From assembly GCA_030167865.1 (NCBI GenBank), contig JALAGF010000798.1, positions 1-64,000 on the forward strand: DNA of 64,000 nt. Direction: 5' to 3'. The stretch comes from Craspedostauros australis (taxonomy: Eukaryota). Positions 24,614 through 49,733 of the stretch are shown here, piece after piece; position 1 is the first letter of the stretch, and each line of letters opens with the position of its first letter. A model generated the notes under the pieces. That model worked only from the letters and a program-made list of their open reading frames with translations. It was not told the origin of the DNA and searched no databases. The position numbers and the translations under genes are program-made.

Positions 24614-25969
24614 TCACATGTAGTCTCTCCACTCTTCGTCGTCGTAGGTCTTGTACCTCGGCACCTTGCTCGTCAAGAACCGCCATGCGGAATCATCGAA
24701 GACCTCGCCCGGCCGCGGAATCATGTGAGCTGGAACATTGCTGGGAAGCTGGGACAAGTCATCGGGGATGTCCAGCTTCTTCGTATCTGGATTGCACAGC
24801 CGGTGCGCGCCCACAGCTTCGCCGCGATGGCACATCTTTTTCTCGAACTCCTTCAGGGTCATGAAGCGATAATGGTGCAGCAAGACGACATCTGATGGAG
24901 CCCCGCGGTTGTGTGCCACCCCTTTGCTCGACTGTCGCATCTGCGTCTCCCAGCTGGCCTCTTCCGCCACCCGTACGAGTTCCGTCGGGAACCCGCCCTT
25001 CGTTGATGTATCATGGATGAACTTGTCTTGCCGAACCTGGACGGCATGCGGGTTCAAGCAGTGCTCATAATCCATCGATTTCACGATGCTCTTAATAGTG
25101 CCACCCGGTGCCGAATCGCGGTACTGGAATCTCTTGGTGATTGGAACTGGTGCATAGAGCGTTCTATTTGAGGTGCCGAAGTACATCCAGTTGATGACTA
25201 GCGCCCCGCCGTACGGGACGAGGTAGTCTTGCAACAAGGCATGGATGCTGTCGTAATCCTTTGGTGCCGACCTCGGCTCTTCGTCTGCGATTGGCTCCAA
25301 TTGGTTCGTTTGGCTTACATTGTTTTGGAAGACGATGAATTCATCGCTGTCGATCAAGGCGATGAAGTCATGCTTTGCCCCAAGCTTTCCATTCCGTTTG
25401 ACGCATTCATCAAACACGAAGTACTGGACAGGCTGACCCTGCCTCTTGCCAGGTAACTTGACCTTTCGGCCTGGTTGGTGCACAACATGGACTCTCGAGT
25501 AGATGGGATGAGACCGCGTGCGATCGTGCCACACTTGCAAATCAAAGTCGTCCGAATTATCGTAGAGATATATGGCGTCAAATTCCAATGCCAGGAGGTT
25601 GTAGTCGATCCATTCCATGAGGTATGCTTCGTGGTCTTTGACAAGCGTGCAAATAGCAGCCGTGAAGTTGTATTTCATGCCCGGGCGCCCCTCGCCATGC
25701 GCAGATTCTATGAGGCCGTGTGTTGCCTCTTCCGTTGTTGTTGCTGACGGCGTGGCTGCACTTCCGTGGTTGCCAGCGCCGTCGTGGTTCTGGTTGCGAA
25801 GAGAGGAAGTCTGCGCCCCTGCGCCTGTTTGGTTCGTCTTGGAATGCGTTGTTTCGGTCGTCACGGGGACCATGCAAGTGAGCACGAAGTTGTTGATCAC
25901 AAGGATGAATCCACCAACAAGCGCACCCACTAGGGTGGCAAGAACAAAGGCAGACCTTGCCTTCCCCAT
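24614..25969 (-). CDS. Glycosyltransferase family 92 (DUF23), type II membrane protein
   Basis: N-terminal TM MGKARSAFVLATLVGALVGGFILVI; AAICTLVKDHEAYLMEWIDYNLLALEFDAIYLYDN; DxD in IDSDEF; LVINWMYFG; TIKSIV; LHHYRF. Confidence 0.88.
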   Translation of the reverse strand: MGKARSAFVLATLVGALVGGFILVINNFVLTCMVPVTTETTHSKTNQTGAGAQTSSLRNQNHDGAGNHGSAATPSATTTEEATHGLIESAHGEGRPGMKYNFTAAICTLVKDHEAYLMEWIDYNLLALEFDAIYLYDNSDDFDLQVWHDRTRSHPIYSRVHVVHQPGRKVKLPGKRQGQPVQYFVFDECVKRNGKLGAKHDFIALIDSDEFIVFQNNVSQTNQLEPIADEEPRSAPKDYDSIHALLQDYLVPYGGALVINWMYFGTSNRTLYAPVPITKRFQYRDSAPGGTIKSIVKSMDYEHCLNPHAVQVRQDKFIHDTSTKGGFPTELVRVAEEASWETQMRQSSKGVAHNRGAPSDVVLLHHYRFMTLKEFEKKMCHRGEAVGAHRLCNPDTKKLDIPDDLSQLPSNVPAHMIPRPGEVFDDSAWRFLTSKVPRYKTYDDEEWRDYM

Positions 25970-28469
25970 GATGCGGTTTGTGGATGTCAGCAGAGAATCG
26001 TCAGGAATTCGCACAGGGCGGCAATGATGGAGGATCGCTTGCGGGCGTTGCTTGTATGGATGTGTCTGGTTGCTTTGACGATCTCGTCGTGATGTCGCGA
26101 TGTTTGATGTTGCGGCGTCGTTCTTGTCGTCTTGTTGTCGTTTGTTGGCGAAGGTTCGCAAGGAGCATGACTCGTGGAAGTCGTGTTGTCACGCTATCCA
26201 CGACTTGGGATTCTCTCCCGGAGGAAGCAGAGAGGCGTTCACGGTCACAATGAACACTCTGCATCTCTGCTCCGCATACCGTTGCCTCGTGCTTCAATCC
26301 TGTGGAGACATTGGTGGAGAATGTACGGCGCAACTACTGTGGAGAGTAGAGTACATACTCGGAGAGGAGAGCCCCACCTGCTTTCGTCTCTTCGCGTTCC
26401 ATTCTCAGCAACCTGTGCTCGGAAGCACAGCCAGCACGACCGCATTGTCGTTTCCCTGTCTCCCTTACCTTCGCCTTTGCCTTGCTTGGTTGTTCTCCAC
26501 TCGTTCTCCTTCCGCTCTCTCCCTTTTGCTCCAGCCGTCCAGGTGCTGTCATCGAAGGCAGAGATGAAGGTTGTTTCCCCATGGAGCACCAGTGCGAGTA
26601 CTGTCAAGATGACACGAGCCTCGCAGCATTGGCCGCAATGCATGGTCGTCGGACAAAGAAGGCGTTGAGCATTCAAGATTGGCTTGGGATCGTACTGTCC
26701 CGACGCTGCAGCTGCGGCAACAGCGGAGCAAAACACAGATGGGAACAATCCTTTTGGCAGCAGCCATCGCCACGTCCAATGTATGATAATTCTAGTGAAT
26801 AGAATGGAATAAGCTCTATTCGTACGTGTGAGCGTGTCAGCAGCGTCAAATTCACTTGTCGCGCTGTCGGGATCGCCCAAAGGTCGGGCATTCTGCTTCG
26901 TTTCGTTTCGTTTCATTCCATTCCATTGACTTTCTTAGTCGTAGTCTGCATGATCGTCACAACTGATGATTCGGTGTGGCCAGTGGTGGCCGTTGCATAG
27001 CGAACGAGACACGAGAGCCGCTCTTCGTGATCCGCTGGTGAAGCATCATCGTCGAAGTTCTCCGCTCTCAGAAGTCGCTCTGACTTGGATAGCACGCGCA
27101 GGGACGAATATTGTGCGAGTATCACCACCATCTGCATCAGCATCGGATGTATTGCATTCAACTATATATTCTATATAATAATATATAAGCAATATATGGT
27201 AGAAGACTGTCATGCACACATCATACTATACTCTTTGAATCCGCGCTCACGCTCACGCTCACGCCCACGCCCACAACGGCAACGGCAACTGATGAAATGC
27301 GACGCTGTCCTCGATTCCCAACAGTTCGAAGCGGTCCGGTTGCAAGAGTCCGTGTGAGGAGATCCGATCTGATCCGATGAGGTGAAATGGAATGAGGAAA
27401 TGAGGCAACCAACCAGCAGCGAAAATCAAGTTTGAGACGTTCCGGATTTGCTGTATGGAGCACTTTGGATGACGTTGGAGTGCTGCTCCTTGATGCTGCA
27501 TCGCCCGATGACGATCGCGACCGCCGATTGGCTTCGCTCGTACACAAGCACGCACTCAGCAAGAATTGGCGATCCAGGTGCTCGGGGATCTCCATTGTAT
27601 GGTCCCATTATTGGTCGTATATTATGCATTATAGAATACGAGTGAGTAGCATCTGGACGAACCATTCCGCTACTGCTCCACAACAGACTCAAGAGCGAGA
27701 GAGAGCACCTGTGCTGGTACTCTGCGGGCATTGTCGCGTTTGCTCAGCAAAGAGGCAGGCGATGCCCTTTTCCGGATGACCGACAAGGTGCCTTTCAGCT
27801 TCCGGTTTTCGACTGTCATGGCGGATGAAGCGATCCGTGATCGCACCATCATCATGGCTTATTCCCACCTCGTACAACTTGAGGCACAATAGCCCCAGGC
27901 AAACAAAAATGAGATTGGTGGATGGACAAGTGCGTCAAATGCCTCCAATCCTAGAGGGTCATTCGGTCACTTGTGGGATCGCAAAGAACGCCCGAAGCGC
28001 AAACAGGTCGGAGGTTGGTCTTAGTGCGTCAGAAGAGGTCATGTGCGAACACCCACACGTTTCCACGCGAAAGGTTTCTCCGACGCGGTCATTGAGATAA
28101 TTCTCTTGCCCGTGTGGTGAGTTTCGGATGGTCATTCCTGAAACTGGTGACAACGCACCAACCCATGCAACGACGCCAACACCAACACCAACACCAACAT
28201 CAGCGATGCTGGTGCCAACACCACCACAAACCGACCGGTACTGATGACGCGGAACTCGTGGTGCCACCGCCAGATGACGAGGCAACCCACACGAGACAGA
28301 CACGACATCCTCTCACAAAAACAAAAATCAAAAAGTAACAATCCGCATCAAGCAATCGCCACCTCACCATTGCTCAACATTGCTCACCAATCAATCACCA
28401 CACCAACGCCATTCTTCACAAACCATAACCATCACGGCACTTTAGAAAATCCAAAGACCGAAGGCAGCC

Positions 28470-29507
28470 ATGGCACGCAATACTTCTCCAGTGCTCCTCA
28501 AGGCACAGTCACCATCGTCAATGTCACAGCCAGCCACCCGTCCCAAGCGCAAGTACAAGAAACGTGCCCCACCCAAGAATGCATTCCCAAAGCGCCTGTT
28601 CCAAATGCTGATGGATGCCGAAAGGGATGGAAATCAGCACATCGTCTCCTGGGTGGATGATGGCACCGCCTTCCATGTTCACGACCAGGAGATGTTCGTG
28701 TCCACCGTCCTCCCACGGTATTTCCGTCTCAGCAAGTACAGGAGCTTTCAGCGGCAGCTGAATAACTACAAGATCGAGCGATACACCAGCGGACCGTTCC
28801 GAGGCGCGTACCACCATTTCCTGCTTCAAAGAGGGCAGCATGAATTGAGCTCGAAATTGATCCGGGAGGCGATCCCAGAAATCGAAGCTTCTCGAGGAGT
28901 CGCCGAACCAACGTCGCCATCACCATCCCGACCGATCGCGAGAGCGGCAACTCCATCCATGCGACGATCATCCAGAAAGCTTTCGTTGTCGGTGCCATCC
29001 CTCGTACCATCGATGACAATGAGTTCTGGAACAGTCGAGACGTCGCCTCCCAACGCCCACATGCCAACACACGCGAGAAGCGAGATCCAGACACCCGCAC
29101 ACGACCAAACCAGTCTCGGTCGGCAGCGGCAGAATGTCCCAACGGTGTCTGACGAAGAGAATTCGATCGACGATTGCAGCAGCAGCAGCAGCAGCACCAA
29201 CAGCGGCAGCGACGGCTCCGCCCATTGCCTCTCAGACGACGACGAGATGTACAGCGGCGTCTCTTCGCCTGGTGCTCATGTCAAAGCTGACAGCGGTCTC
29301 ATGCAGCACGAGCATTTCCTGGGCAAAAGGTTCTACCCCATCGAAACAGAAGAAAGGACCTTTGAGCAAACACTCGTCTCGTCCGATAGCATGCTGCAGC
29401 TGGACCACCAAGGGGTTGATCTCGACATGGATCTCGATGTGGATCTCGATGTGGCTGACGCGTCACTCGACATGAAACAACCAGGGATTTTAATTGTTGC
29501 TTTGTAG
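28470..29507 (+). CDS. Heat shock transcription factor (HSF DNA-binding domain), intronless
   Basis: FPKRLFQML...IVSWVDDGTAFHVHDQEMFVSTVLPRYFRLSKYRSFQRQLNNY...GAYHHFLLQRG. Confidence 0.93.
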   Translation: MARNTSPVLLKAQSPSSMSQPATRPKRKYKKRAPPKNAFPKRLFQMLMDAERDGNQHIVSWVDDGTAFHVHDQEMFVSTVLPRYFRLSKYRSFQRQLNNYKIERYTSGPFRGAYHHFLLQRGQHELSSKLIREAIPEIEASRGVAEPTSPSPSRPIARAATPSMRRSSRKLSLSVPSLVPSMTMSSGTVETSPPNAHMPTHARSEIQTPAHDQTSLGRQRQNVPTVSDEENSIDDCSSSSSSTNSGSDGSAHCLSDDDEMYSGVSSPGAHVKADSGLMQHEHFLGKRFYPIETEERTFEQTLVSSDSMLQLDHQGVDLDMDLDVDLDVADASLDMKQPGILIVAL

Positions 29508-30729
29508 AATGCCACACCAATACAAGGCTCAGCCATTTTGATACGAGCACGATAGAATAGACCACGTTGAATAGTTTCGACAAAGCAATGCTGTGCCACA
29601 GAATGATGATACCACCATATTCAACCATTATGCAATATTCTAGCTCGTACCAGAGAGGGTCACTCCATCGAAGCAAATGCGAACGAGTGTCCTCCCGTGA
29701 GAGATAGAGACGGAGACAGAGAGGGGGGAAGCAAAAGGATTGATGGTCTTATGTTTGATGCAGAGAAGCATCCCTCCAGATGGAACGATCCTGCTGGATC
29801 ATCTTCTAAATTACTCGTATGTGCACACGACGTTGATGGTCCAAGAGCGTAACTGGAAGATATGGTACCATACATGGACATCCCATTCGTGCTAAATCGA
29901 GGAATAGGAGGATTCCTCATGCAATACTTACTTCACTCATGAGATCATCAGTCAAAGTTGCACCGAGTTCTCCAGGCGATGCGACTATAATACTTCACAC
30001 ATGCATCTATCCTTCAATTGGTCGACACGTCGCCATGCTCCGTTGGACGTCACTCGTATGTACATTGATCCACACAAAGTTGCCCGGTTCCACTGTGTGC
30101 GTGATTGGGTTCAGGGTTGCTTGTGACCTGTTCCTTGTCAACCGCCAGTCGATGCGCCACAGTTCGTGCGACGCAAGAGATGTGATACGGAAAGTGATAT
30201 CGTGCCAGCCAACCGGTCCACAAATACGACCAGGATTAGTGTAATAATACATACGAGTGTTATATCCCTCGTGGAGTAGCGCCCAACAGCACCCCAGATG
30301 AGTGATTGTTTGGCTGTTGTGCTGTTCAACGTGGAGCAATCCCCACGTCCACCATCAACACATCGACTGATGGTACGGCCGACCCGCAACATCGGCAAAA
30401 GCAGAAAGCGGGGAAACGAAGCGGCCGCCAAAGAAATAGAAATGTGTTTGCACCAACAACGAGGCCTGTTCGGATTTACGCACGAGTTCTCGTACGACTA
30501 CGGCGCGCATGACAGCACAGAATGGATCAATGTGCGACAAAGAGATGAGCCCAACGGTAATGTCACCAGAACATGGCCCACAGCCTTTTCAGTTCCTGAT
30601 GCGAAGAATGTTGAAGACTCCCTTGGCGAAGAACGAAGAACAAGGAAAGTGGGGAACAGAGAACAGAGAACAGAAGGCGATGCACGCGATAGGCAATGCC
30701 AATCACGCTTTCCCGCCTACACACAATCA

Positions 30730-30852
30730 ACACCAGCGCCAACGCCAACACCAACGCCAACGCCAACGCCAACACCAACGCCAACACCAACGCCAACACC
30801 AACGCCAACACCAACACCAACACCAACAACAACACCAACACCAGCGCCAACA
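30730..30852. repeat. (ACRCCA)n hexamer microsatellite, about 20 units
   Basis: Run of acacca/acgcca units directly visible. Confidence 0.95.
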
Positions 30853-31432
30853 CGGACGGAAACGACAAACCATCGCACCATCGCGGAGATTGTGGCCGCT
30901 GGCATGTATCTTGGTACGAGCCATGCACACACACGGATGAGTGAAGTGATGGTCGAGTGATAGTAATTGAATGGTATTTTGTCGAGTATGATCATCTGCG
31001 CGGTCGCAGATTGGTGCACAGGTGGTGCTCGTGCACTTGGCGATTGCATGGCGCGTAGCCATTCCAGGAAGCGGTAGGGGCGCAACGTTTTCGTCACAAC
31101 ATCTCGACATCACAACATAACTGCACGGCATGGTATGGTAGAATATGTGCCACAAGCTCGCCTTCATCACATCCCCTCATTCCTTCGCAACCAAAGCATC
31201 AGAGTACGACCTACGACATCTTTGCTAGCAACACCAACAGCATCCTGAAGCACCACCAAGACCAACGACATCAACGAACAGGAGGCAAAACCTCAAAAGA
31301 ACAACCAACCTCGCCCAACTCTTTCACATTCGTTTCAGCCCCGGGCATCTCGGCCTTCACCCTTCGAGCAATCTGCTTAGTTCCTCCTCATCTTCTAAGG
31401 TAATATACATCACAAGAAAGGCACTGCTGATC

Positions 31433-33404: not shown

Positions 33405-36400
33405 ATGGCTCGTACTGGGACGAACATGCCAAGTGCGAGTAGAAAAGGAGGCAAAGGTGGCGACAGCCAGCAGCGACGCCATCGCCGGGCTCAAAATCCT
33501 GCGACCTCGTCGGCAGCAGCATCTGCATCAGCGTCATCTGCACGTCACACATCGGTGCCAGCGAAGGGGGCCATCCTAATCTTGCATGGCAATCGTCAGA
33601 CCGGACAGCTCTTCCTCGGGCGGATTGAACGCATCGTGAAGAGATTCCGCAAGGAGTTTGGATTGCGCTGTGTCGTCCCAGAAGCGCCGCATATGCATGA
33701 GGGCGATGGACCGCGTATGAAGGATCCGAACGAAGGGAAGTTGCAAACTTGGTGGCACCTCGATCTGAAATCCAACCAATACGTTGGGTTGGAAGACTCC
33801 TTGGATGCCATTCGTCAGTCGATCACGCAGCACGAGACGAACTCGACATCCGGCGGGAAGCAGAGCAATGAGAATGCACAATCTCGGCCACCGACATCCG
33901 TTCCCATCGTTGGGATTCTCGGATTCTCCCAAGGCGCTCGAATGGCTCATTTGTTGGCCTTGCTCCACTCTCGTTCACAAGCGGTTGTGCCGTTGTCTTC
34001 TGGGCCAGGTGCTGCCGCCCAGGAGCCGTCTGATTCTTACTGCTGGCTACCAGATTTACGGTTCTGCATATTCGTGTCTGGATATGACGCTCCACTTCCA
34101 TCGAACTTCCCAGTGCAGGGATCTGTCGAGAAGCAATCTGATATGATATCCGACAAGCTGTCATCTCTGCACGTGTATGGGACGCAGGATCCGTTGGTGA
34201 CTCCGGATCAATCCAAGGCCCTCCTCAAGCTGTACCCATCGAATGGATCGGCATCGAGCAGCGAACTCGCGGAATCGTCCGAAGGGACGGACCGCAAAAA
34301 GACGGCTGCCCTGCGACGAAGTCTGGAGCACGATGGTAAGCACTTTGTCCCGTCCAAAGCCTCGCACCTTGAGACTTACAGCAAGTTCATTGCAACGGTT
34401 TGCAAGCACGAAAGTACCGACGGTGCAGTCACTAATGTTCCGGAAAAGAAGACTTCACAGAACGATGCATCCACCAAAGCACCGTCGAGAGCGCAGTCAG
34501 CGCAGCCAAGTGCGATAGGAGGCACGAGAAACTCATTGGCGAGCAGCGCCGTTCCGCAAAACAAGACAAATCCTGCTGGGAGTGCCACATCAAGCGTCTC
34601 AGTGAGGGACGAGGATTCCACCAAAACCGCACCCCAACCACCGCCGCCACGTATCCCTCTATCAAAAAAGACCACGGCCAAGATCTCAGCCACAGTCACA
34701 GCCACAAGCAAGCCGGATGAAGAATCGCAGCAGATGCAACAGGACGAAGTCCAAGCATTGGAAGCAATCTACCCCGACGAATTCGAAATGATATCCACAA
34801 GGAAGGAGGTGGATTTTGACTTTGACTTTGACTTTCCAATCGCCTTCACGATCCAGCTCACGCCTGTGGATGATGGTGGAGCAGGCGCTGCCGCCACCGG
34901 TGATGACGACGATGGTGACAACAACTGGCCACCGCATAAGGTGAGTTTGCGTGTGGATTTCCCGCACAACTACCCCAACGAATCCCTCCCCCGCCTCAGT
35001 CTCAAGCACGACAACAACATCTACGAATTCCCATACCTGGTCCAAGAGCAAGTTGTCCTGGCTGCTGAACGTGCAGCTCAAGAAGAGCTGGGCATGCCAT
35101 GTGTCATGTCTTGCATTGAGGGCGCGAAGGAGTTCCTCGATGGACCCAAATGGGAGGCGGCCTCTCAACTACGCCTGGCCGTCAACACAAACGGTGAGGA
35201 ATTGGGACAGGGAGATGAACCCATGGGTGATGAACATGCAGCAGATGGTGAAACGGAAAAGGACGCACTCTCGGCTCAACAAGCTCCGACATCATCACTG
35301 TTGGCAAGGTCGCAACCGAAGGAAATAGCGAATGCCACAATCGAAGGATTGGACATTGCCAAGAGCATCTTGCAGCGGCATGCGAATTCTTCAAAGCACG
35401 ATGCCAAAACCAGCACCGAGAGTGTGAGCGTGGATGCAAGCGGAGCGGTGGGAAACACCGGTAGTGGTGGAGGAGGCGGAGGTGGGTCATTCTGGACATA
35501 TACGATCGGGTTGGTGGGAAAGCCCTCTGCTGGAAAGTCCACCTTTTTCAATGCTGCCACGGCTTTTGCAAGACAAACGGGGCACGATGATTCGAAATCT
35601 GCAGCAAAGCGAAAGGAGACAGCATCCGTCCTGAACATGGATGCGGATATGATGGCGGACATGATGGCAGAGGAGGCCTCGAAGCGATTGGGAGGTGCCA
35701 GCATGGCACCGCACCCATTCACCACGATCAACCCGAACGTGGGGTTCTGCCTCGTCCCTGCTCCGCTTGGTTCCTGTCCGGAGGACGATCTCCCCAACCA
35801 TGTCGAATCCAGAACCTATGGCTCCACGCATGGACGCACAGCGACCGGTCGCCGGTTTCTGCCCGTCCTACTCAAAGATGTCGCCGGTCTCGTGCCTGGA
35901 GCCTACAAGGGCAAGGGAAGGGGGAACCAATTCCTGAATGATCTGTGTGATTCACACGTCCTAATTCACGTGGTCGATGCCAGCGGTACAGCGGATGCGC
36001 AGGGCAACAGGACTGTGACAACGGAAGTTTCAGATCTCATGACTTCGAGCGCCAGCGGCAATAACGACCAGCGTGACGCTGACGAGGGGGACGAAGCGTC
36101 TGCAGATTACACCAACCCGCTCACTGACTTGGCCTGGATCAGAACGGAGCTTCTGCAGTGGGTCACGATGAACCTGATGGCGAAATGGGATACGGTTCAA
36201 CGCAAAGGGAGGATTAAGTTGGTCGGAATGCTCAGTGGGTATGGGCAGCCCCAAGCCACGACGCATGATGTCTGCGATGCTTTGGAACACTTTATGGAGG
36301 CCACATATCAACGCAGCAATGTGTTGGACAGCATTCCAGACTGGAACGAGGCCGATGTCCACCGATTTGTGAGTGCCTTCTTGGGTGTTCGCTTCCCAAT

Positions 36401-37136
36401 GGCCCTCGCCCTCAACAAATGCGACCTACCATCAAGCAAGAAATACATTGAAGATGTTACATCGAAACTGCCGATCCACGGCGCACATGTCGGAACTCCC
36501 ATGGTCGCCAAACAAGAAATGGGCTTCATCCGCAAACACTTGTTGAAACGATTGGAGACCCTAGAACAGGCCCGGGGTGGCACCGATGACCAATCCCACA
36601 AGCAATACATCGAACGCGGTAACAGCTCAGTGATCGACCTGGACGTTTGGCAATGTCTGACATCTGCAATTTCACTGAAGGAACCCATGCTCGTGTTCCC
36701 CGTGTCGAACTTCACCACGTTCGCCCCGATGGTCGGATTGAACCAGGTGGCAACGAATAGCCCGTCGTTGCCGAGCCCCGGAATGATAGCCTGCATCCAG
36801 GCATCGGGAGGTTGCCTGCCATCGCTCTGGGATCCCTCGAAGGAACGGTACGGCCTGGACAAGGATCGCGCGGAGGGAAAGGACAAGCAGCCACGTCGTG
36901 CCACGAAAGACGTCTCTCCGCTGCGGGATGTGCTGCTGATGAAGCCTGGGTCGACGGTCGAGGATGTGTTCCTCACACTGAAGAACTCAGGCGCCCTGAG
37001 CGGGGACTTCGTAAGGGCCGAGGCATGCGGCGGAGTGAGTAGAGAGAAGCCCAAGCCTGTTCCCAAACACACGATTTTAGGCCGTCACAATCGCATCATC
37101 AAAATCCAAACGACGAAGCGATCGCAGTGGCAGTAG
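33405..37136 (+). CDS. Fusion protein: FSH1/OVCA2-type serine hydrolase + RWD domain + OBG-family (Ygr210-like) GTPase with TGS-like C-terminus
   Basis: One 1243-codon ORF. Hydrolase: LILHGNRQTG, GILGFSQGA, HVYGTQD, HDGKHFVP. RWD: QDEVQALEAIYPDEF, FPHNYP, LGMPCV. GTPase: IGLVGKPSAGKSTFFNAAT, PFTTINPNVG, DVAGLVPGA, GRGNQFLNDL, IHVVDASG, ALNKCD. TGS-like: LRDVLLMKPGSTVEDVF. Confidence 0.88.
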   Translation: MARTGTNMPSASRKGGKGGDSQQRRHRRAQNPATSSAAASASASSARHTSVPAKGAILILHGNRQTGQLFLGRIERIVKRFRKEFGLRCVVPEAPHMHEGDGPRMKDPNEGKLQTWWHLDLKSNQYVGLEDSLDAIRQSITQHETNSTSGGKQSNENAQSRPPTSVPIVGILGFSQGARMAHLLALLHSRSQAVVPLSSGPGAAAQEPSDSYCWLPDLRFCIFVSGYDAPLPSNFPVQGSVEKQSDMISDKLSSLHVYGTQDPLVTPDQSKALLKLYPSNGSASSSELAESSEGTDRKKTAALRRSLEHDGKHFVPSKASHLETYSKFIATVCKHESTDGAVTNVPEKKTSQNDASTKAPSRAQSAQPSAIGGTRNSLASSAVPQNKTNPAGSATSSVSVRDEDSTKTAPQPPPPRIPLSKKTTAKISATVTATSKPDEESQQMQQDEVQALEAIYPDEFEMISTRKEVDFDFDFDFPIAFTIQLTPVDDGGAGAAATGDDDDGDNNWPPHKVSLRVDFPHNYPNESLPRLSLKHDNNIYEFPYLVQEQVVLAAERAAQEELGMPCVMSCIEGAKEFLDGPKWEAASQLRLAVNTNGEELGQGDEPMGDEHAADGETEKDALSAQQAPTSSLLARSQPKEIANATIEGLDIAKSILQRHANSSKHDAKTSTESVSVDASGAVGNTGSGGGGGGGSFWTYTIGLVGKPSAGKSTFFNAATAFARQTGHDDSKSAAKRKETASVLNMDADMMADMMAEEASKRLGGASMAPHPFTTINPNVGFCLVPAPLGSCPEDDLPNHVESRTYGSTHGRTATGRRFLPVLLKDVAGLVPGAYKGKGRGNQFLNDLCDSHVLIHVVDASGTADAQGNRTVTTEVSDLMTSSASGNNDQRDADEGDEASADYTNPLTDLAWIRTELLQWVTMNLMAKWDTVQRKGRIKLVGMLSGYGQPQATTHDVCDALEHFMEATYQRSNVLDSIPDWNEADVHRFVSAFLGVRFPMALALNKCDLPSSKKYIEDVTSKLPIHGAHVGTPMVAKQEMGFIRKHLLKRLETLEQARGGTDDQSHKQYIERGNSSVIDLDVWQCLTSAISLKEPMLVFPVSNFTTFAPMVGLNQVATNSPSLPSPGMIACIQASGGCLPSLWDPSKERYGLDKDRAEGKDKQPRRATKDVSPLRDVLLMKPGSTVEDVFLTLKNSGALSGDFVRAEACGGVSREKPKPVPKHTILGRHNRIIKIQTTKRSQWQ

Positions 37137-37844: not shown

Positions 37845-39758
37845 TCACTCCTCCTTGTCTTCTGATGCATGGTCTGTGTTGTCGTCTGCTGCCGCATTTC
37901 CGCTGCTGCTGTTTGCAGATGAATCGGTCGCCGCTGCTGCAGGTGGCGCAGACGGTGCTCCTGCGGGTGGCATCGGCGAGGAAAGCAGTTGATCCACTGC
38001 GCGGTTCAGGTTGCCAAAACTGGCTTGCAACGCTGCCAAGTTCGCCTGTTCGTCGTCAAAGCCCATGTTTCGCAGCTCCGCCAGCTGCGATCGGTACGTG
38101 TCGGCAGGATGCATGTTGGAGGGCGGCGTGGCTGAAGCGCCACCGCCGAATCCCGTCTGCATATTCTGGAACTGCTGCATCATGGAGCCGAAGTCGAGAG
38201 GGGCCATCCCGCCTGGAGCTGGGGCCGCGCGGTTGGCTTGATGACCGAGCAAAGTGCTGAAGTCAAGCGGTGGTGCGCCCGTTCCACCAACAGCTGGGGT
38301 CGTTGGCGATGCGCCCGTCCCGCCGAAGGATTGCTGGAGCTGCATCATGGTACGAAGGTTGTCGGGATTCATCATCTCACGGATCATGTTGTTGGCCATC
38401 TCCGGATTCTGCGCAAACATCTGTCGGAACATGGGGTTCTGCGCTTCCATCATGCTGCGGATCATGTCTGGATTTTGCTGCACCATGTTATCCATCATCT
38501 GACGCATCATGGGATTTTCGAGCATGTTCATCACCTGCTCCATTTGCTGAGGGGAACCAGGCATGCCATTCATGTCAGGCATCATGTTGGCCATGCCTGT
38601 TCCTGTTCCTGCCCCCGCTCCTGCCGCCCAAGGATTGAATGGTTGATTGGCCGCAGACGACGACGACGACGACGAAGGTGCCACGGCCTGCTGACCTGGA
38701 GCAGCGCCAGCTCCCATGCCGCCGTTGGCAATCGCGGCCCATGGATTTGCCATGGACATGCTGGGCATGTTCTGTGCAGATGGCCGCGATGGTGCTGATG
38801 CAGGGCTCGGGCTGCCCCACGGATTTGGCATGGCGGTGCCGCGTGCACCGTCGCCCTGAGTCTGAGAGGACTGATTGGCAGCGTTGCCGGAAGTTGCCGA
38901 TGCAGAGAAGGGCGACGATGACTGCGCCTCCATCATGGGTTCTTGGATGTCGCGGTACATGCTGGAAAGTGCCCGGAAGCCACCTGGGATATTCTCCAGC
39001 TGGGACATGGCCAGATCCTGCTGCCTCATCGCCTGCTGCATGGCGTTCGGGTTGCGCATCATCTGGATGGCCTGATCCAGCATGGCCGGGTCGTTCCACA
39101 TCTGTCGGATCTGCGGATTGCGATCCATGAGCTCCTGCATCTGCGGGTTGGATTGCATGGAGGACTGCAGCACGTTGCGCATGAGATCTGGATTGTCCAT
39201 GAGCGATTGCATCATGGGGGAGTTCATCATGCTCTGCATTTGCTCCGGAGATGGCATCTGTCCTGGCGTCATCATTGGCATGCCGAAGGGATTGGCCGAA
39301 TTAGCCGCATTGTTTGCATTGGCCCCAGCTCCTGTTCCTGCTCCTGCTCCTGATACTGCTGGCGATGACCATGGATTGGGAGCTGACGTGCCTGTTGCGG
39401 ACGGAGCATTCACAAATGCCGGCGCTTGCACTTGTGGCTGAGACTGCGCCGACGTTGTCGGCTGCGAATTAGACGCAGTGGACCCAGCAGGTGCGGCGGC
39501 CGACTGCGGCTTGCCAAGCACCAGGAAAACGGTAGCCTCATTGACGATGCCGTAGTCCGAAAGCTTGCGCTCGTCGTCGTCCAGAATCCGTCCCTTGTAC
39601 ACCAATCTCTGGCGGTTGGCTGGGCAGTCGAACTGGACGGCTGCGATAGCGTCCTTGAACTGAGGCACGAGACTGTCAGGAGAGATCTCAACCTCGAAGC
39701 ACTTCCCGCTCGAAAGGCGGATCTTCAGCTGCCACTTCTCGCTGCTTTCCGTTGTCAT
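37845..39758 (-). CDS. UBQLN: Ubiquilin/Dsk2 (UBL-STI1-UBA)
   Basis: UBL with RQRLVYKGRILDD; Met/Gln/Asn/Pro-rich STI1 repeats; SQLENIPGGFRAL and MPNPW motifs; UBA YRSQLAELRNMGFDDEQANLAALQASFGNLNRAVDQLL. Confidence 0.95.
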   Translation of the reverse strand: MTTESSEKWQLKIRLSSGKCFEVEISPDSLVPQFKDAIAAVQFDCPANRQRLVYKGRILDDDERKLSDYGIVNEATVFLVLGKPQSAAAPAGSTASNSQPTTSAQSQPQVQAPAFVNAPSATGTSAPNPWSSPAVSGAGAGTGAGANANNAANSANPFGMPMMTPGQMPSPEQMQSMMNSPMMQSLMDNPDLMRNVLQSSMQSNPQMQELMDRNPQIRQMWNDPAMLDQAIQMMRNPNAMQQAMRQQDLAMSQLENIPGGFRALSSMYRDIQEPMMEAQSSSPFSASATSGNAANQSSQTQGDGARGTAMPNPWGSPSPASAPSRPSAQNMPSMSMANPWAAIANGGMGAGAAPGQQAVAPSSSSSSSAANQPFNPWAAGAGAGTGTGMANMMPDMNGMPGSPQQMEQVMNMLENPMMRQMMDNMVQQNPDMIRSMMEAQNPMFRQMFAQNPEMANNMIREMMNPDNLRTMMQLQQSFGGTGASPTTPAVGGTGAPPLDFSTLLGHQANRAAPAPGGMAPLDFGSMMQQFQNMQTGFGGGASATPPSNMHPADTYRSQLAELRNMGFDDEQANLAALQASFGNLNRAVDQLLSSPMPPAGAPSAPPAAAATDSSANSSSGNAAADDNTDHASEDKEE

Positions 39759-40790: not shown

Positions 40791-42587
40791 TTAGGAATCC
40801 TTCTTCGGTGGAAGCTTCGTAATCTTGCCAATCGCGATGGTCTTTCCCTCCGTTCGCAGTGTGAAACGTCCCAAGAATGGCATACTTTGGAATGTGTCCA
40901 CTGGGACGGTTCGACCGAGCTCGATCATGCACACCACGCGCATGCCGATGTTCGCGAAGCGTGCGTTGTTGCCCTTGGCCACCTTGCCCTTCTTGTCGGT
41001 GGTTTCGAAGATCTTCACGATGGTGCACTCCTCCTCCACGCAGTGAGCATGGAAGATGGCCTGGAAGCCAGCTGTCATTATTCTCGTGTTCTCGGGCATT
41101 TCCACGACAGCCATTTGACAGATGATCTTGTCGACGGCTCTGCAGGCAGGCTGGGTGCAGATGACGAAGCCCTTCCTCACATCCTCCACGCCAGCTCCGT
41201 TGAGCTTGATGAGGACGTTTTCACCGGGTCGGGCTCCGGAAACAGGGTCTTCGTTCGCCCAAACTGCGTCGACCTTGTATTCGTTTCTCGTAGGCATCAG
41301 CATCACCTTCATTCCTGGCTTTACGACGCCGCTCTCCACCTTGCCCATGGCGATGGTGCCGCGATCGTTGTAGCGATCGAGCACAGGGATGCGGAGTGGG
41401 GCCTGTGCGTCGCGCCCGCCGATCTGCATCGAGTCCAGGAGTCCCAGCAATGTGGAGACGCTGGTGTTGTTCTCACCCTTCGTGTGTGATGGCTTCCACC
41501 AGGGGCAGACCGAAGCATCGACCTCGTCCTTGACGTTGGCTCCGCTCAAACCGGAAATCGGGATGAACTTGACTTCCTTCTTGATCGTGAATCCGCAGCT
41601 CTTCAGGAATGGCCGCAGCTTGGTGACGCACTCATCGTAACGCTCCTTGGACCAGTTCACGGTCGGGTCGTCCATCTTGTTGACGACCACGATGAGGTAG
41701 GAGACGCCGAGAGTCTTGGCGAGCATGGCGTGCTCTCGGGTCTGGCCACCACGGTCGAAGCCTGTCTCGAATTCTCCCTTACGTGCGGAGATCACGAGCA
41801 CCGCGATGTCGGCCTGGCTGGCACCCATGATCATGTTCGGCACGTAGTTCTTGTGACCTGGTGCATCCAGGATGGTGTAGCGCTTGTCCTTCGTTTCGAG
41901 GTGAGCCTTGCCGACCTCCACGGTCTTTCCCTTCGCGCGTTCCTCTTCATTCGTGTCCATGATGAATGCCAGGAACCAGGACTCGCGATTTCGCTCCTTG
42001 GCTTCGCGCTCGTACCTCTCGATGGTGCGCTTGTCGACGTTGTCGGTGAGGTAGAGGATGTTTCCAGAGAGCGTCGATTTTCCTGCATCGACATGCCCGA
42101 TGAAAACCAAGTTGAAATGCTCTCTCGGATCACCTTCAGTCAATGCGGCTGCGCTTTCTTCGAGCACAGGCCGGGCTGCTGGCTGTGGCGCGCTTTCAGG
42201 TTTGTCGCTCACCTTCAGCTTGTCGGTGGCTTCCTGCGCAAGGGATTCGTCCGCAGATGCCGCCGGCTCCTCTTGTGTCTGTTGTTGCGCCTCCAGCTCT
42301 GCCTCGTCGACGGTACCCAACAAGGCCTGCACCTCTGGATACTTGGAGAGGGAGTCTGGGTCGCTGATCATTTTCAATGCCTTCGTACGATCGCCTTCTG
42401 CAACCTTCAGTACGGCCTTCCAAAGAGGATCATTCTCATCGACCTGGTCGCTGTCATCTTTGGCGGGCACAGGTGCGGGTGCAGGAGCTGGCGCGGGAGC
42501 TGGGGCTGCCGCAGTGGGTGGCGTCCACGACTTGGCCGCCACCGATGGCTTCCATTCGCTTGCCTTGGGATCCATCATGTTGCTCAT
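40791..42587 (-). CDS. eRF3: Eukaryotic release factor 3 (eRF3/Sup35/GSPT)
   Basis: NLVFIGHVDAGKST, RESWFLAFIMDTNEEERAKGKTVEVG, LDAPGHKNYVPNMI, NKMDDPTVNWSKERY and the C-terminal GRFTLR motif. Confidence 0.96.
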   Translation of the reverse strand: MSNMMDPKASEWKPSVAAKSWTPPTAAAPAPAPAPAPAPVPAKDDSDQVDENDPLWKAVLKVAEGDRTKALKMISDPDSLSKYPEVQALLGTVDEAELEAQQQTQEEPAASADESLAQEATDKLKVSDKPESAPQPAARPVLEESAAALTEGDPREHFNLVFIGHVDAGKSTLSGNILYLTDNVDKRTIERYEREAKERNRESWFLAFIMDTNEEERAKGKTVEVGKAHLETKDKRYTILDAPGHKNYVPNMIMGASQADIAVLVISARKGEFETGFDRGGQTREHAMLAKTLGVSYLIVVVNKMDDPTVNWSKERYDECVTKLRPFLKSCGFTIKKEVKFIPISGLSGANVKDEVDASVCPWWKPSHTKGENNTSVSTLLGLLDSMQIGGRDAQAPLRIPVLDRYNDRGTIAMGKVESGVVKPGMKVMLMPTRNEYKVDAVWANEDPVSGARPGENVLIKLNGAGVEDVRKGFVICTQPACRAVDKIICQMAVVEMPENTRIMTAGFQAIFHAHCVEEECTIVKIFETTDKKGKVAKGNNARFANIGMRVVCMIELGRTVPVDTFQSMPFLGRFTLRTEGKTIAIGKITKLPPKKDS

Positions 42588-45814: not shown

Positions 45815-48800
45815 TCACTTCTCGTGCTTCCTGTCATTGTTGTTCTTGTTGTCGTTGCCATTGTTGTTGCCATTGTTGTTGGATGGAGAGTCATGGCTGC
45901 GTTGGCGATTCCCACCATTGTGCTCTCGGCCTCTCCCGTGGTCTTGGTCCCTGCGACGATCGGCATCTCTACTCCGATCCCGATCCCGGCCTCTGTCTCT
46001 ATCCTTGTCGCGTCGGTCTCTGTTGCTGCGAGATCGATCAGGACGACGTCTCTCGTGGTCGGATTCATCCCTGGGGGCGCCGGCGTTCCTGTCGCTGCCG
46101 CTTTTCCTATCGTGATCGCGATCCTTCTCTCTGGCGTCGATGTGACGTCGACGAGAGCGGTGGCGATCTTTGTCTCGGGATGATCGGCGATGCCTATCGC
46201 GGTCTCTGCCCCTGTCGCGATCTTTGCCGGACTTCCGAGACCGGTCAGAGCGCCTCCTGCGACGATTATCGCTGCGCGATCCTGAAACACTTTCATTACC
46301 ACCTTCGGTGTTGTCACGGCCGGCTCTCGAATCATCACCATCGTGGTCATTCGCCTTGTCGCCCTCCTTGTCGTTCGCGTGTCCGTAAGAATCCTGTCTC
46401 GGACGATTCATGGGAGCTTCATCGTCAGATGGTCGCGATCGGGACCTCTCATCGTTCTCCTTGGGCCTGTCGCCATGGGATGCCCGCTTTGATCGTTCAC
46501 CGCCGTAACGCTCACCGTCGGCGTCGTCGTCGTCGTCGTCTCGGTGGCGCTTGCGGCGTCGCTCCTTCCCGTCTGAGCCTCTCTTCCGGTCGCCTCTGTC
46601 ATCCTTGCTTCGTCGGCGTCGATCGCTGTGGTCATCATCGTAGACATGGTCGTTGTCCTGATCGTAGCGGCGACCGTGCTCATAGTCGCGAACGTGTTCT
46701 TCCGGGTATCCTTGAGCATGCTCAAAGCCACGACGTCGCTCTGGACCTCGATTATGATCCCTGTCACGTTCACGTTCACGGTCGTGGTCACGTTCACGGT
46801 CGTGGTCACGTTCACGATCGTTGTCATGTTCGTGTTCGCGGTCGTTGTCACGTCGATAGCGTTCCTGATCCATGTGCCTCGTATCAGATGGATGATCCGG
46901 TGGTCCACGGCCTACTTCTTCGTGTGGGCGCCAAGAACGCCCATCATCATTGCCGCCGCCACCGTTTCTTCTTCCGCCGCTGCCACTGCCGCTGCCTCCG
47001 ACTGATCGCCTGGAATGCTGAGAAGGCATGTCATCACCCATGGTACCTTGCTTCGGGCCACCAGAGCTCTCGTTTATCTCCTTCTCCATTTGGCGCTTGT
47101 AGACAAAGTCGTACTCCTCCTGAGCCTCCCTCTTGGACTTGCCCATCTCCTGGGCGTACTCCTTGGCCTTCTCCGCTTCGACCTTGGCTGCTCGTCTCTT
47201 CTTCTTGGTTTGGAATTCATGGAAATGCCCGCCATCTGAAAGAATGAACCCGAGCTGCTCCGGGTATTCGGGAGCGCGTGGCTCGCTCATGAAGTACCTG
47301 CTGTTGAGGGCCCGTTCGGCAGAGAGACGCTTCTTGGGATCTAGCTCCAGCATCTTCTCGAGGAGGTTGAGCGCTGGTGGCGACATCTTGGTCTGGTACT
47401 TCTTCCGAAGCCTCGGTTCCTTCTGCTTGTCAATGACGACCTCGCGCGTCCTCACCAGCTTGAGGTCGCTGAACCCCTCCCAAGTATTCTTAGTCGGCGT
47501 CCCCATCATGTCGAATATGAGCCGGAGCTGGTTCATCTCAGCATCCCCCGCAAACAACGGTTTGCCGAGGAAGAGCTCGCCCAGGATGCATCCCGCGCTC
47601 CAAATGTCGACCGCTGTTCCGTACTTGGTGGCCCCAAGCAGAATCTCTGGTGGCCGGTACCACAGTGTGATCACCTTGTTGGTGAACTCCAGCGAACTCC
47701 CACGTCTACAGAGTAGGTGCAGGATTCACGCATGCATGGCCGGCCAGGTAATTGTGTCGGTGGATGGGTGGGTGCGTGGATGGATGGATGGGTTGATGGA
47801 GATAAGGAGGAGGTTTGGTGTCATATTCATGTTGGGTGGGAGGGCGAGAAAGGCGAGGAGAGAAAGAGACAAATGATCGAAGCAATGCAGATGAGCAATT
47901 GCAAGGAGACAGAAGGGAGGATGAGTTTGGTGTGTATGAGAAACGACAGCATGTGTGACGATGTATGCGCGTGGTTGGTTGGTTGGTTCGTTGATTGATT
48001 GATTGATCAGTTGGACGAAGGGATGGATGGAAGGGTGAATGGATGGATGAATGGATGAGTCCATGAGTGTCAACAACATCGAGAAGCACAGAACAACACA
48101 TTCGCGGTTGTTGGATAATAGTACGTACTCATGGATGTTATCTAGTATTGGAGGCTCGATGGAGCGTGCAAGGCCGAAGTCTGCAAGCTTGACTCTGAAT
48201 CTATTGTCGATAAGAATGTTCGATGACTTTATGTCGCGATGGACGTATTTATTGTCGTGCATGTAGTGCAGGGCCTGCAACAGCTGTTGAAAGACACATT
48301 TGATCTGCACCTCATTGAAGCGGAACGCGACATCCATCAGCCCTGTGAGGTCGTGCGACACGTACTCCAGAACTAAAAACAGGTTCCCTTTGAAGCCTTC
48401 CCTGGCATCAACACTGCGGCTCTTGCCCGATTTGCCGGATTTGTGCTTCGACCGGCGTTCCTCCTCCTCGTCGTCGTCGCCTTCATCCAGATGCTCAACG
48501 CCTTTCGAACTTACCACCTCCACCATCCGCACGAGGTTGGGGTGCCGCAGCCGCTTCAGGATCTTGATCTCGCGAATCACTGTTGGCGGTATCCCCCAGT
48601 ACCCGGCATGGTGGACCTTCACCTTTTTCATCGCCACGATTTGGTTGTTATCCTTACATCTCGCGCGGTATACCTTGCCGTACGTTCCCAGCCCGATTTG
48701 TTCTATCCGCTCGTAGTGCGCAATGGTCCGTGTCATTCTCATCCAGTCATTGTTGTTGTTGTTGTTGTTGTGATTGTTACTGTTGCTGCTGCTCCCGATG

Positions 48801-48943
48801 TTGTTATTGTTGTTGCTGTTGCTGTTGTGGAAGTTCCCATTGCTGCGGGTGGCCGCTGTGACACCAGATGACCCAGGGGGAAGCATGGGCGCATTCGAAG
48901 ATACGATGGACGGAATCCGCGACCCATCAACGCGGTCAGACAT
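45815..48943 (-). CDS. Transcriptional CDK (CDK12/13 / CDKC-like) with long C-terminal RD/RE/RS domain; exons 48943..48129 and 47705..45815
   Basis: IGLGTYGKVY, VAMKK, PPTVIRE, HRDIKSSN, DFGLAR, T-loop EFTNKVITLWYRPPEILLG after splicing (donor gtacgt, acceptor tgtag), HEFQTKKKRR extension. Start Met uncertain. Confidence 0.92.
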
Positions 48944-49733
48944 GTTTGTCTGCATCTGTGCCTGTCCCTTCCTTGCGTGGAGTGGGTATTCGTGGAGTGG
49001 AGGAGAGGAGAGTTTGCAGAGCGCTCTCGATCGATGTCCGGACTGCGCTGGAGCACATGAATCGTGCTGATGGATCGATCGGTCTGCTGTATCGTGTCCT
49101 CGTGTGCTCTGCTCGTACGAGAGCACAAGTTCTGTTCTCGTCCAGTATCGGTGGCTGTGGTTTTGTGGGTGGGGGAGGGCAGGGTGCGTCCTTCTCTCTT
49201 GTGTGTGGAGGAAACGCAGACGGGTTGGTTGGTTGGTTGGTTGCGACCTTTGCATTTGAGCGGCGGTCTTCGTTCTCGTTGTCACTGGTGCTGCGCGTTG
49301 CTGTGGCCTTTGCTTTTCTTGTTGTTCCTGTCATCGCTGTTTGGGAAATTGGCTGTTTTGGTGAGTTTCGATGGAATTTCGTGTTTAAGCTCTGATTAAG
49401 TACCATAGTCAACTAGTGCCAACGGAATTGTACCACACTTTTTGTTCGTGTCCCAGGATTCTTCGTGTTTGTGTGGCACACAACAATGGCGTGGTACGAG
49501 ACTCATCCGTCTGTCCATCGTACGAAATACGCTACGTAAGGAACCGAGACATTGTGGAATCTTGTGGATGGACATATTTGTTGACGAGCCATCATACGTA
49601 TTACATACGAGAGACGACAACCGATCTCCGATGAAGCCTGCCCTGCCGATACTTCCTGGAGTATGCAAGTCTCCAGAGAGAACCATACGTGCACGAGCAT
49701 TAGCACATAATCTGTCAGATTGATGGTGTTGCG

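Follow-up and report, generated by a model that had tools for sequence, protein, structure and literature searches.

Yeast Gir2–Rbg2 and human DFRP2–DRG2 each pair an RWD domain with an OBG-family GTPase whose C-terminus is a TGS domain. The accessible part of one study reports that the Gir2 RWD domain is necessary and sufficient for Gcn1 binding and that, in the Gcn1-disome, Rbg2–Gir2 occupies the leading stalled ribosome; there Rbg2 is at the A site, its TGS domain lies on 18S h5/h15, and the G domain of Rbg2 is located at the stalk base and the sarcin-ricin loop (PMC8040806). A second report, in its accessible part, places the RWD-binding region of GCN1 beside the GTPase centre and describes its recruitment of RNF14 (10.1101/2022.03.21.485216). 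A TGS domain is also found in RelA, where it contacts the CCA end of A-site tRNA (PMC5291266, accessible text). The Ygr210-type GTPases and the FSH1/OVCA2 hydrolases are conserved families whose biological roles are not known. In this study we analysed a stretch of 64,000 nucleotides from Craspedostauros australis (contig JALAGF010000798.1, positions 1 to 64,000 of the forward strand; the whole stretch is referred to as the window), in which a single open reading frame (ORF) on the plus strand, 33405..37136, joins an FSH1-type hydrolase, an RWD domain and a Ygr210-type GTPase. This gene is the diatom orthologue of an ancient eukaryotic three-module protein.

The likeness of the window protein to Gir2–Rbg2 and DFRP2–DRG2 is a functional analogy only: all of them pair an RWD domain with a TGS-ending OBG-family GTPase, but Gir2–Rbg2 is a two-chain heterodimer whose GTPase is of the DRG subfamily, whereas the window protein is covalent, is assigned to the Ygr210 subfamily and has an added esterase. 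Its nearest counterparts are FSH1-RWD-MMR_HSR1-YGR210-like_G4 proteins of other eukaryotes, which have the same domain order, invariant triad and G motifs; examples are Cre12.g538200 of Chlamydomonas, PTSG_12765, a Nitzschia inconspicua protein named 'translation-associated GTPase' and hypothetical proteins of Trypanosoma cruzi, Leishmania and chytrids. In the non-diatom orthologues of this architecture, the YGR210-like_G4 Pfam signal is stronger than in the window protein.

Hydrolase, RWD and GTPase modules in one reading frame

The ORF starts at an ATG in the context ACAAATGG, has an in-frame TAG five codons 5' of this ATG and encodes 1243 amino acids plus a stop. It lies within the longest stop-free run of the 64-kb window (1248 codons), whereas the longest such run in 50 mononucleotide shuffles was 332 codons; the composition-based probability of 1243 stop-free codons is ~1e-23. 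The original prediction had described one ORF joining the three modules, and Pfam and profile matches along the 1243 codons bore this out; the positions that it gave for the GFSQG serine, GTQD, DGKH, the RWD domain, the G domain and NKCD were all correct.

The hydrolase module, an FSH1/OVCA2-type alpha/beta serine hydrolase domain, comprises residues 47–334 (33543..34406, plus strand, as are all features of the ORF). It is preceded by a basic, Ser/Ala-rich extension of 46 residues without a family match (33405..33542); in relatives, the FSH1 domain starts within about 1–100 residues of the N-terminus. Pfam FSH1 (PF03959) matched residues 54–324 with an E value of 1.1e-31 and 110.6 bits (cut-off, 21), spanning profile positions 4–210 of 211. 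The predicted catalytic triad consists of Ser175 in GFSQG (codon at 33927–33929), Asp262 in GTQD (34188–34190) and His313 in DGKH (34341–34343). All three residues are invariant in the 59 aligned full-length relatives, and the triad, rightly said at the outset to be intact, is present in each of the 264 retrieved relatives that cover the three columns. The family profile matched yeast Fsh1 over its full length (PDB 1ycd_A, 7e-26) and also reached carboxylesterases (3cn7, 8.5e-7) and APT1 (about 9e-4). Yeast Fsh1 and human OVCA2 have the same GxSxG nucleophile and Ser-Asp-His triad, which in OVCA2 is the homologous Ser117-Asp179-His206 (PMC7077851, accessible text); these are stand-alone enzymes, whereas the window hydrolase is fused upstream of the RWD and GTPase modules. 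The window protein thus carries a live-looking FSH1/OVCA2-type serine esterase that is predicted to be catalytically competent.

The RWD module occupies residues 440–580 (34722..35144) and was recognised by Pfam and by profile matches to RWDD1 and GCN2. Pfam RWD (PF05773) matched residues 443–578 (E 5.1e-17; 62.5 bits, cut-off 22.8) over its whole length, positions 1–112 of 112. Tyr523-Pro524 (34971–34976) lie in the turn sequence YPNESLP, which is one residue longer than the RWD turn motif, YPxxxP. Tyr523 is kept in 301 of 302 relatives and Pro524 in 298 of 302; these counts, and those over 364, 320 and 353 relatives given below for the GTPase, come from a set retrieved with the window protein itself and are biased towards this query. 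When RWD domains were ranked by profile, RWDD1/DFRP2 came first (8.7e-18), followed by GCN2 (2.7e-16 to 1.7e-10), RNF25 (3e-10), RWDD3 (1.6e-7) and IMPACT (4e-5); the single window sequence used as a query gave a weak signal, with RWDD1 at 0.005. The GCN1 binders RWDD1/DFRP2 and GCN2 are therefore, by profile, the nearest counterparts of the window RWD domain (PMC8040806; 10.1101/2022.03.21.485216; accessible parts).

The third module is an OBG-family G domain with a helical insertion, of the Ygr210/PH0525 type (residues 696–1179; 35490..36941). It contains G1 GKPSAGKS (35517–35540), G2 TT (35721–35726), G3 DVAGL (35877–35891) and G4 NKCD (36414–36425). The G1 lysine is present in 316 of 320 relatives, G3 DxxG is followed by leucine in all 353, and the Asn-Lys of G4 is found in 364 of 364 and its Asp (NKxD) in 363 of 364. 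The leucine after the G3 glycine presumably marks a GTPase of the 'hydrophobic-substituted' type. The guanine-type G4 of the original prediction is therefore a near-constant feature of the family, and NKxD argues for guanine specificity of the putative window GTPase. YchF/OLA1, a sister subfamily within the OBG family, shares the arrangement of a G domain, a helical insertion and a TGS domain, but its G4 reads NxxE and it prefers ATP; the window protein, with NKCD at G4, differs from it in this signature.

Subfamily placement of the GTPase rests on profile scores. A family profile of 62 sequences matched Pyrococcus horikoshii 1wxq_A at 1.4e-78 (chain residues 3–354), whereas its matches to YchF ranged from 7.6e-25 to 3.4e-20 (1jal, 7.6e-25; 8kie, 8.9e-23) and those to Obg were about 6e-17. 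Pfam MMR_HSR1 matched from residue 700 with 33.7 bits (cut-off, 21.9), and the best NCBIfam match was PRK09602, 'YchF-related putative GTPase', at 2.3e-47, 36 orders of magnitude ahead. Two scores weigh against the placement: Pfam YGR210-like_G4 (PF08438) reached 14.3 bits on the window protein, under its cut-off of 24.7, and PRK09602 reached 161.8 bits, under the curated 387. Of the Pfam domains foreseen for this ORF, FSH1, RWD and MMR_HSR1 were upheld above cut-off. Because many non-diatom orthologues of the same family (e.g., P0157, P0165, P0166 and P0199) pass the PF08438 cut-off, however, the low scores of the window protein look like the result of diatom divergence plus insertions. Since the 1wxq_A match stands far above those to YchF and Obg, we place the window GTPase in the Ygr210/PH0525 subfamily on profile evidence, although it lies under two curated cut-offs. 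Ygr210c (Saccharomyces cerevisiae), SPBC428.15 (Schizosaccharomyces pombe) and PH0525 (1wxq) are by far the best structural relatives of this domain, and some orthologues of the window protein carry the automatic names 'YGR210C-like' and 'C428.15'. The archaeal and yeast proteins are bare GTPases of ~400 residues, whereas the window GTPase has N-terminal FSH1 and RWD modules and lineage-specific loops.

The C-terminal residues, about 1180–1237 (36942..37115), form a putative TGS (beta-grasp) domain. The window tail alone matched nothing in the PDB. A tail profile, made from the last 115 residues of the window protein aligned with 29 archaeal tails, matched 1wxq residues 283–395 (8e-48), the TGS domain of human DRG1 (2eki, 2e-7), RelA/SpoT TGS domains (2.5e-4 to 9e-4) and Rbg2 in the Gcn1-disome entry 7nrc (0.012). 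At the level of the family, this confirms the predicted TGS-like tail as a probable TGS domain. Lys1193 (36978–36980) stands at the site of a near-invariant archaeal histidine (IHTD); among eukaryotic relatives this position is Lys in 265 and Arg in 25 of 352.

The window protein is the longest diatom-type member seen, at 1243 residues against a median of 913 in relatives, with expanded linkers and G-domain loops. Linker 1 (residues 335–439; 34407..34721) is of low complexity and rich in Ser, Thr, Ala and Pro, and linker 2 (residues 581–695; 35145..35489) is acidic and Gly-rich. Compared with the medians of 221 triple-domain relatives, the FSH1–RWD gap is 106 residues (median, 29) and the RWD–GTPase gap 116 (median, 85). 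The G domain has a variable loop at 35568–35699, which is diatom-wide, and another at 36012–36101. In-frame microsatellite-like repeats account for part of the extra length: (TTTGAC)x3.5 at 34815–34835 encodes FDFDFDF within the RWD domain, and a 12-mer repeated 2.2 times at 35643–35668 encodes ADMMADMM in the G1–G2 loop, which suggests that loops were lengthened by slippage. We considered whether the 44-residue G1–G2 insert is an unspliced intron and rejected this, because other diatoms, including the transcript-derived P0005, have inserts of variable length at the same place.

An old family across eukaryotes

A length-matched search yielded 173 proteins at E <= 0.001. Among the 120 of these matches that were listed, 109 contain FSH1, RWD and MMR_HSR1, eight contain RWD and MMR_HSR1, and three contain FSH1 and RWD. 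Named diatom sources are Nitzschia inconspicua, Cylindrotheca closterium, Seminavis robusta, Fragilaria crotonensis, Epithemia, Mayamaea, Thalassiosira, Skeletonema and Cyclotella. Four of the matches are MMETSP transcripts marked type:complete (P0005, P0032, P0046 and P0052); overall, at least nine triple-domain complete ORFs lie on single assembled transcripts, namely these four and P0157, P0165, P0252, P0262 and P0272. An assembly chimera, the case that a search of related genomes was meant to expose, is thereby countered. The nearest relatives are only 47–53% identical to the window protein, and the window species or its gene model is therefore absent from the protein sets. In a maximum-likelihood tree of the GTPase half, the window protein grouped with Cylindrotheca closterium and Nitzschia inconspicua (support 99/99) within a 100/100 clade of diatoms plus Triparma.

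The family extends far beyond diatoms. When 1.84 billion cluster representatives were searched exhaustively, 1173 matched at E <= 0.001, 232 of them at E <= 1e-30. By Pfam, the 64 more distant representatives that are 650 residues or longer comprised 47 with all three domains, 11 with RWD and GTPase, five with FSH1 and GTPase and one with the GTPase only; of the retrieved proteins of at least 750 residues, a query-biased set, 221 of 231 have all three. A profile built from 14 distant representatives was used to retrieve named triple-domain proteins. These come from stramenopiles (Tribonema minus, Hondaea fermentalgiana and Triparma columacea), the choanoflagellate Salpingoeca rosetta (PTSG_12765), the ichthyosporean Sphaeroforma arctica, chytrids (Irineochytrium, Chytriomyces and Blyttiomyces), Plasmodiophora brassicae, the dinoflagellate Cladocopium goreaui, the green alga Scenedesmus and kinetoplastids (Trypanosoma cruzi, T. 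conorhini and T. grayi). In Effrenium voratum, Leptomonas seymouri and Leishmania tarentolae, Pfam labels the FSH1 and GTPase domains without RWD. Through the homologue P0021, the Protein Atlas yielded two clusters of the same architecture, dominated by Euglenozoa (71 members) and Chlorophyta (93 members). The architecture is thus present in stramenopiles, where it was proposed that it be sought, but it is not specific to them or to diatoms: it is an old, pan-eukaryotic family, already visible with these Pfam domains in public annotation, in which Chlamydomonas Cre12.g538200 is a publicly annotated orthologue. Our literature search, which covered sources other than subscription-only papers and supplements, found no functional study of the FSH1-RWD-GTPase architecture, in keeping with the earlier statement that no protein of this kind has been characterised; the sole mention in print that it found, in the accessible part of the source, is a supplementary legend on Cre12.g538200 (PMC12711092). 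The window gene is one more ordinary orthologue; the functional hypothesis seems not to have been published.

Some family members depart from the common architecture. Chytriomyces hyalinus P0251 has an additional N-terminal 2H/CPDase cyclic-phosphodiesterase domain (residues 7–149) before FSH1, RWD and GTPase, and this extra fusion, if the gene model is right, would point to RNA or tRNA ends. In P0232, a DUF167/YggU domain stands in place of the GTPase middle, and the tail of the Scenedesmus protein P0290 (1637 residues) bears a weak likeness to porins; gene-model fusion may account for both. Two short public diatom models, the Psemu1-labelled JGI protein of 466 residues (P0325) and a partial Fragilariopsis cylindrus protein of 320 residues (P0130), appear truncated, and the fusion may be under-annotated in diatom genomes. 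A search for shorter homologues returned only diatom fragments and partial gene models, which are uninformative on natural split forms.

In three species of Branchiostoma and the mollusc Nucella, proteins of 570–576 residues start at the RWD domain and lack FSH1. The RWD–GTPase pair is the conserved core of the family. Of 598 candidate stretches in prokaryotes, 533 proved to be relatives, and the best 80 loci are all archaeal, Asgard lineages included. A GTPase ORF was found in 75 of these best 80 loci; 73 of the 75 fall within a length filter of 380–440 residues and are stand-alone proteins of 381–437 residues. Because the archaeal homologues are bare GTPases, the RWD domain was probably added in eukaryotes, where GCN1 exists. 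The picture that emerges is of an archaeal-derived GTPase that would have acquired RWD and FSH1 modules early in eukaryotes, with later loss of FSH1 in some animals and of the whole gene in several lineages. The yeast Ygr210-type proteins presumably lost the whole N-terminal part. According to a published table, as far as it is accessible, Arabidopsis, rice, Cyanidioschyzon, human and Escherichia coli lack the Ygr210 subfamily (PMC4263083).

In archaea, a DUF2095 gene adjoins the Ygr210-type GTPase gene in 11 of 75 loci (L005, L038, L041, L046, L048, L052, L062, L067, L077, L079 and L080) from several phyla; the lineages include an Anstonellales archaeon, Methanomethylicota, Archaeoglobi, Thor- and Helarchaeota and Desulfurococcaceae. 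The DUF2095 protein is a possible conserved partner of the archaeal GTPase.

Possible roles of the three-module protein

The original prediction went on to infer a self-contained ribosome-surveillance factor and the deacylation of peptidyl-tRNA. Because the RWD domain is closest by profile to the GCN1 binders RWDD1/DFRP2 and GCN2, we tentatively read the window protein as a single-chain counterpart of Gir2–Rbg2 that may carry an esterase to GCN1-marked stalled ribosomes; we give this reading rather less than an even chance. The GTPase and its TGS domain would dock at the ribosomal GTPase centre and A-site region, as their OBG cousins Rbg2/DRG and YchF do, and on stalled or collided ribosomes the RWD domain would bind GCN1 at the latter's RWD-binding region. 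The esterase, on its flexible linker, would be delivered to the GCN1-marked site and might there cleave an ester or thioester, candidate substrates being an acyl-tRNA ester and an acylated protein or lipid-like ester. A more specific form of this proposal is decidedly improbable: a GCN1-recruited Ygr210-type GTPase whose TGS domain would position the tRNA acceptor end and whose esterase would hydrolyse the peptidyl- or aminoacyl-tRNA ester on stalled ribosomes, in a system as old as the last eukaryotic common ancestor or arising soon after.

Several points weigh against a role on ribosomes of this kind. According to the accessible text, OVCA2 and Fsh1 prefer long straight-chain alkyl esters of more than 10 carbons in vitro (PMC7077851), and such a substrate does not resemble an aminoacyl-tRNA ester. 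The Chlamydomonas strain lf5-2, which lacks the orthologue and two other genes, is viable (PMC12711092, accessible part). Some lineages (amphioxus and a mollusc) do without the esterase, and the long, variable, repeat-expanded linkers argue for a loose tether rather than tight GTP-gating of the esterase. The near-invariant archaeal TGS histidine is lost in most eukaryotic relatives; matched by eye and not by alignment, it may correspond to a histidine of the RelA TGS domain, where the conserved His432, in the TGS helix, is near C74 of the tRNA CCA end (PMC5291266, accessible text). Association of the window protein with the ribosome or GCN1 is something that we infer, and Ygr210c is itself uncharacterised. 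Lastly, no DFRP, HTH or S5D2L domain was found in the window protein by Pfam at E values up to 1. The protein is best regarded as an analogue, not a member, of the DRG/Rbg–DFRP system, and its matches to DRG proteins are confined to the G and TGS parts common to both.

One alternative places the protein off ribosomes, as a GTP-regulated metabolic or acyl esterase acting on lipid-like or acyl-protein esters, with the RWD domain as a general adaptor and the GTPase as a nucleotide-sensing switch. We consider this unlikely, though it is a serious contender: the OVCA2/Fsh1 preference for esters of more than 10 carbons fits it, as does the reach of the family profile to carboxylesterases and APT1, and some RWD proteins, such as RWDD3, are described in partly accessible sources as acting outside translation. 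However, the window RWD domain is nearest to the GCN1 binders RWDD1 and GCN2 and not to RWDD3, and all characterised OBG relatives that were matched (YchF on the ribosome in 8kie, Rbg1/2, Obg and MTG2) are ribosome- or RNA-associated. The TGS tail also speaks against it, as TGS domains contact rRNA or tRNA in Rbg2 and RelA (PMC8040806; PMC5291266; accessible parts).

The same tail would suit a tRNA-centred factor that works mainly off the ribosome, in which the TGS domain and GTPase recognise the acceptor end, as the RelA TGS domain reads the CCA end (PMC5291266, accessible part), and the esterase acts on the 3' ester in aberrant acyl-tRNA clearance, maturation or repair. The archaeal gene neighbourhoods lend this some colour: of the 75 loci, the GTPase gene lies directly upstream of Kae1/TsaD on the same strand in 25 and has a Bud32-like kinase gene near it, downstream on the same strand, in 19, and upstream of it stand archaeosine TGT in 18 and an AAA_18 NTPase in 21. 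The 2H/CPDase phosphoesterase domain of chytrid P0251 also fits. Nevertheless, the Kae1/Bud32/TGT synteny is confined to Nitrososphaeria (e.g., L033:6200-7186 and L070:2850-4370), P0251 is a single gene prediction, the conserved TGS histidine is lost in the eukaryotic family, and the RWD domain is left unexplained. We regard such a factor as doubtful, and neither the Kae1/Bud32/TGT nor the DUF2095 neighbourhoods explain the function of the GTPase.

That the fusion is an artefact (an assembly chimera, read-through of two or three adjacent genes, or in-frame unspliced introns) would accord with the great length and unusually long linkers of the window protein, with the short Psemu1 and F. cylindrus models and with one transcript ORF of 269 residues marked complete, but it is extremely improbable in view of the same three-domain order in the great majority of the listed relatives, complete single transcripts included, a stop-free run far beyond chance, a G1–G2 insert that recurs at variable length in other diatoms, and extra length that is partly made of in-frame repeats.

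Surroundings and significance of the gene

Immediately downstream of the ORF, on the minus strand, lie genes for a ubiquilin-like protein with ubiquitin-like, UBQLN1 and UBA domains (37845–39758) and for eRF3 (40791–42587; 4crn_P match at 9e-142), so that three proteostasis or translation genes are consecutive. Eukaryotic gene order rarely implies function. Elsewhere in the window we found an HSF-type DNA-binding protein (28470–29507, plus strand), a family-2 glycosyltransferase-like ORF (24614–25969, minus), a protein kinase (47726–49255, minus) and two ORFs without a Pfam match (26245–26916, minus; 30298–30960, plus).

The value of the finding lies in the family, not in the copy in the window. 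The catalytic residues appear to be under strong constraint and all three activities under selection, and a fusion kept over approximately the whole span of eukaryotic evolution with invariant catalytic residues is strong 'Rosetta-stone' evidence of joint action. The presence of the RWD domain directs attention to GCN1, on which the responses to stalled ribosomes centre. The family is present in tractable organisms, namely Chlamydomonas, for which a deletion strain exists, trypanosomatids, diatoms and Salpingoeca, and the hypothesis is therefore directly testable. If the protein does act as an acyl-tRNA esterase on stalled ribosomes, it would constitute a new, previously unrecognised arm of eukaryotic ribosome quality control and would provide first functions for the orphan Ygr210 GTPases and FSH1/OVCA2 hydrolases.

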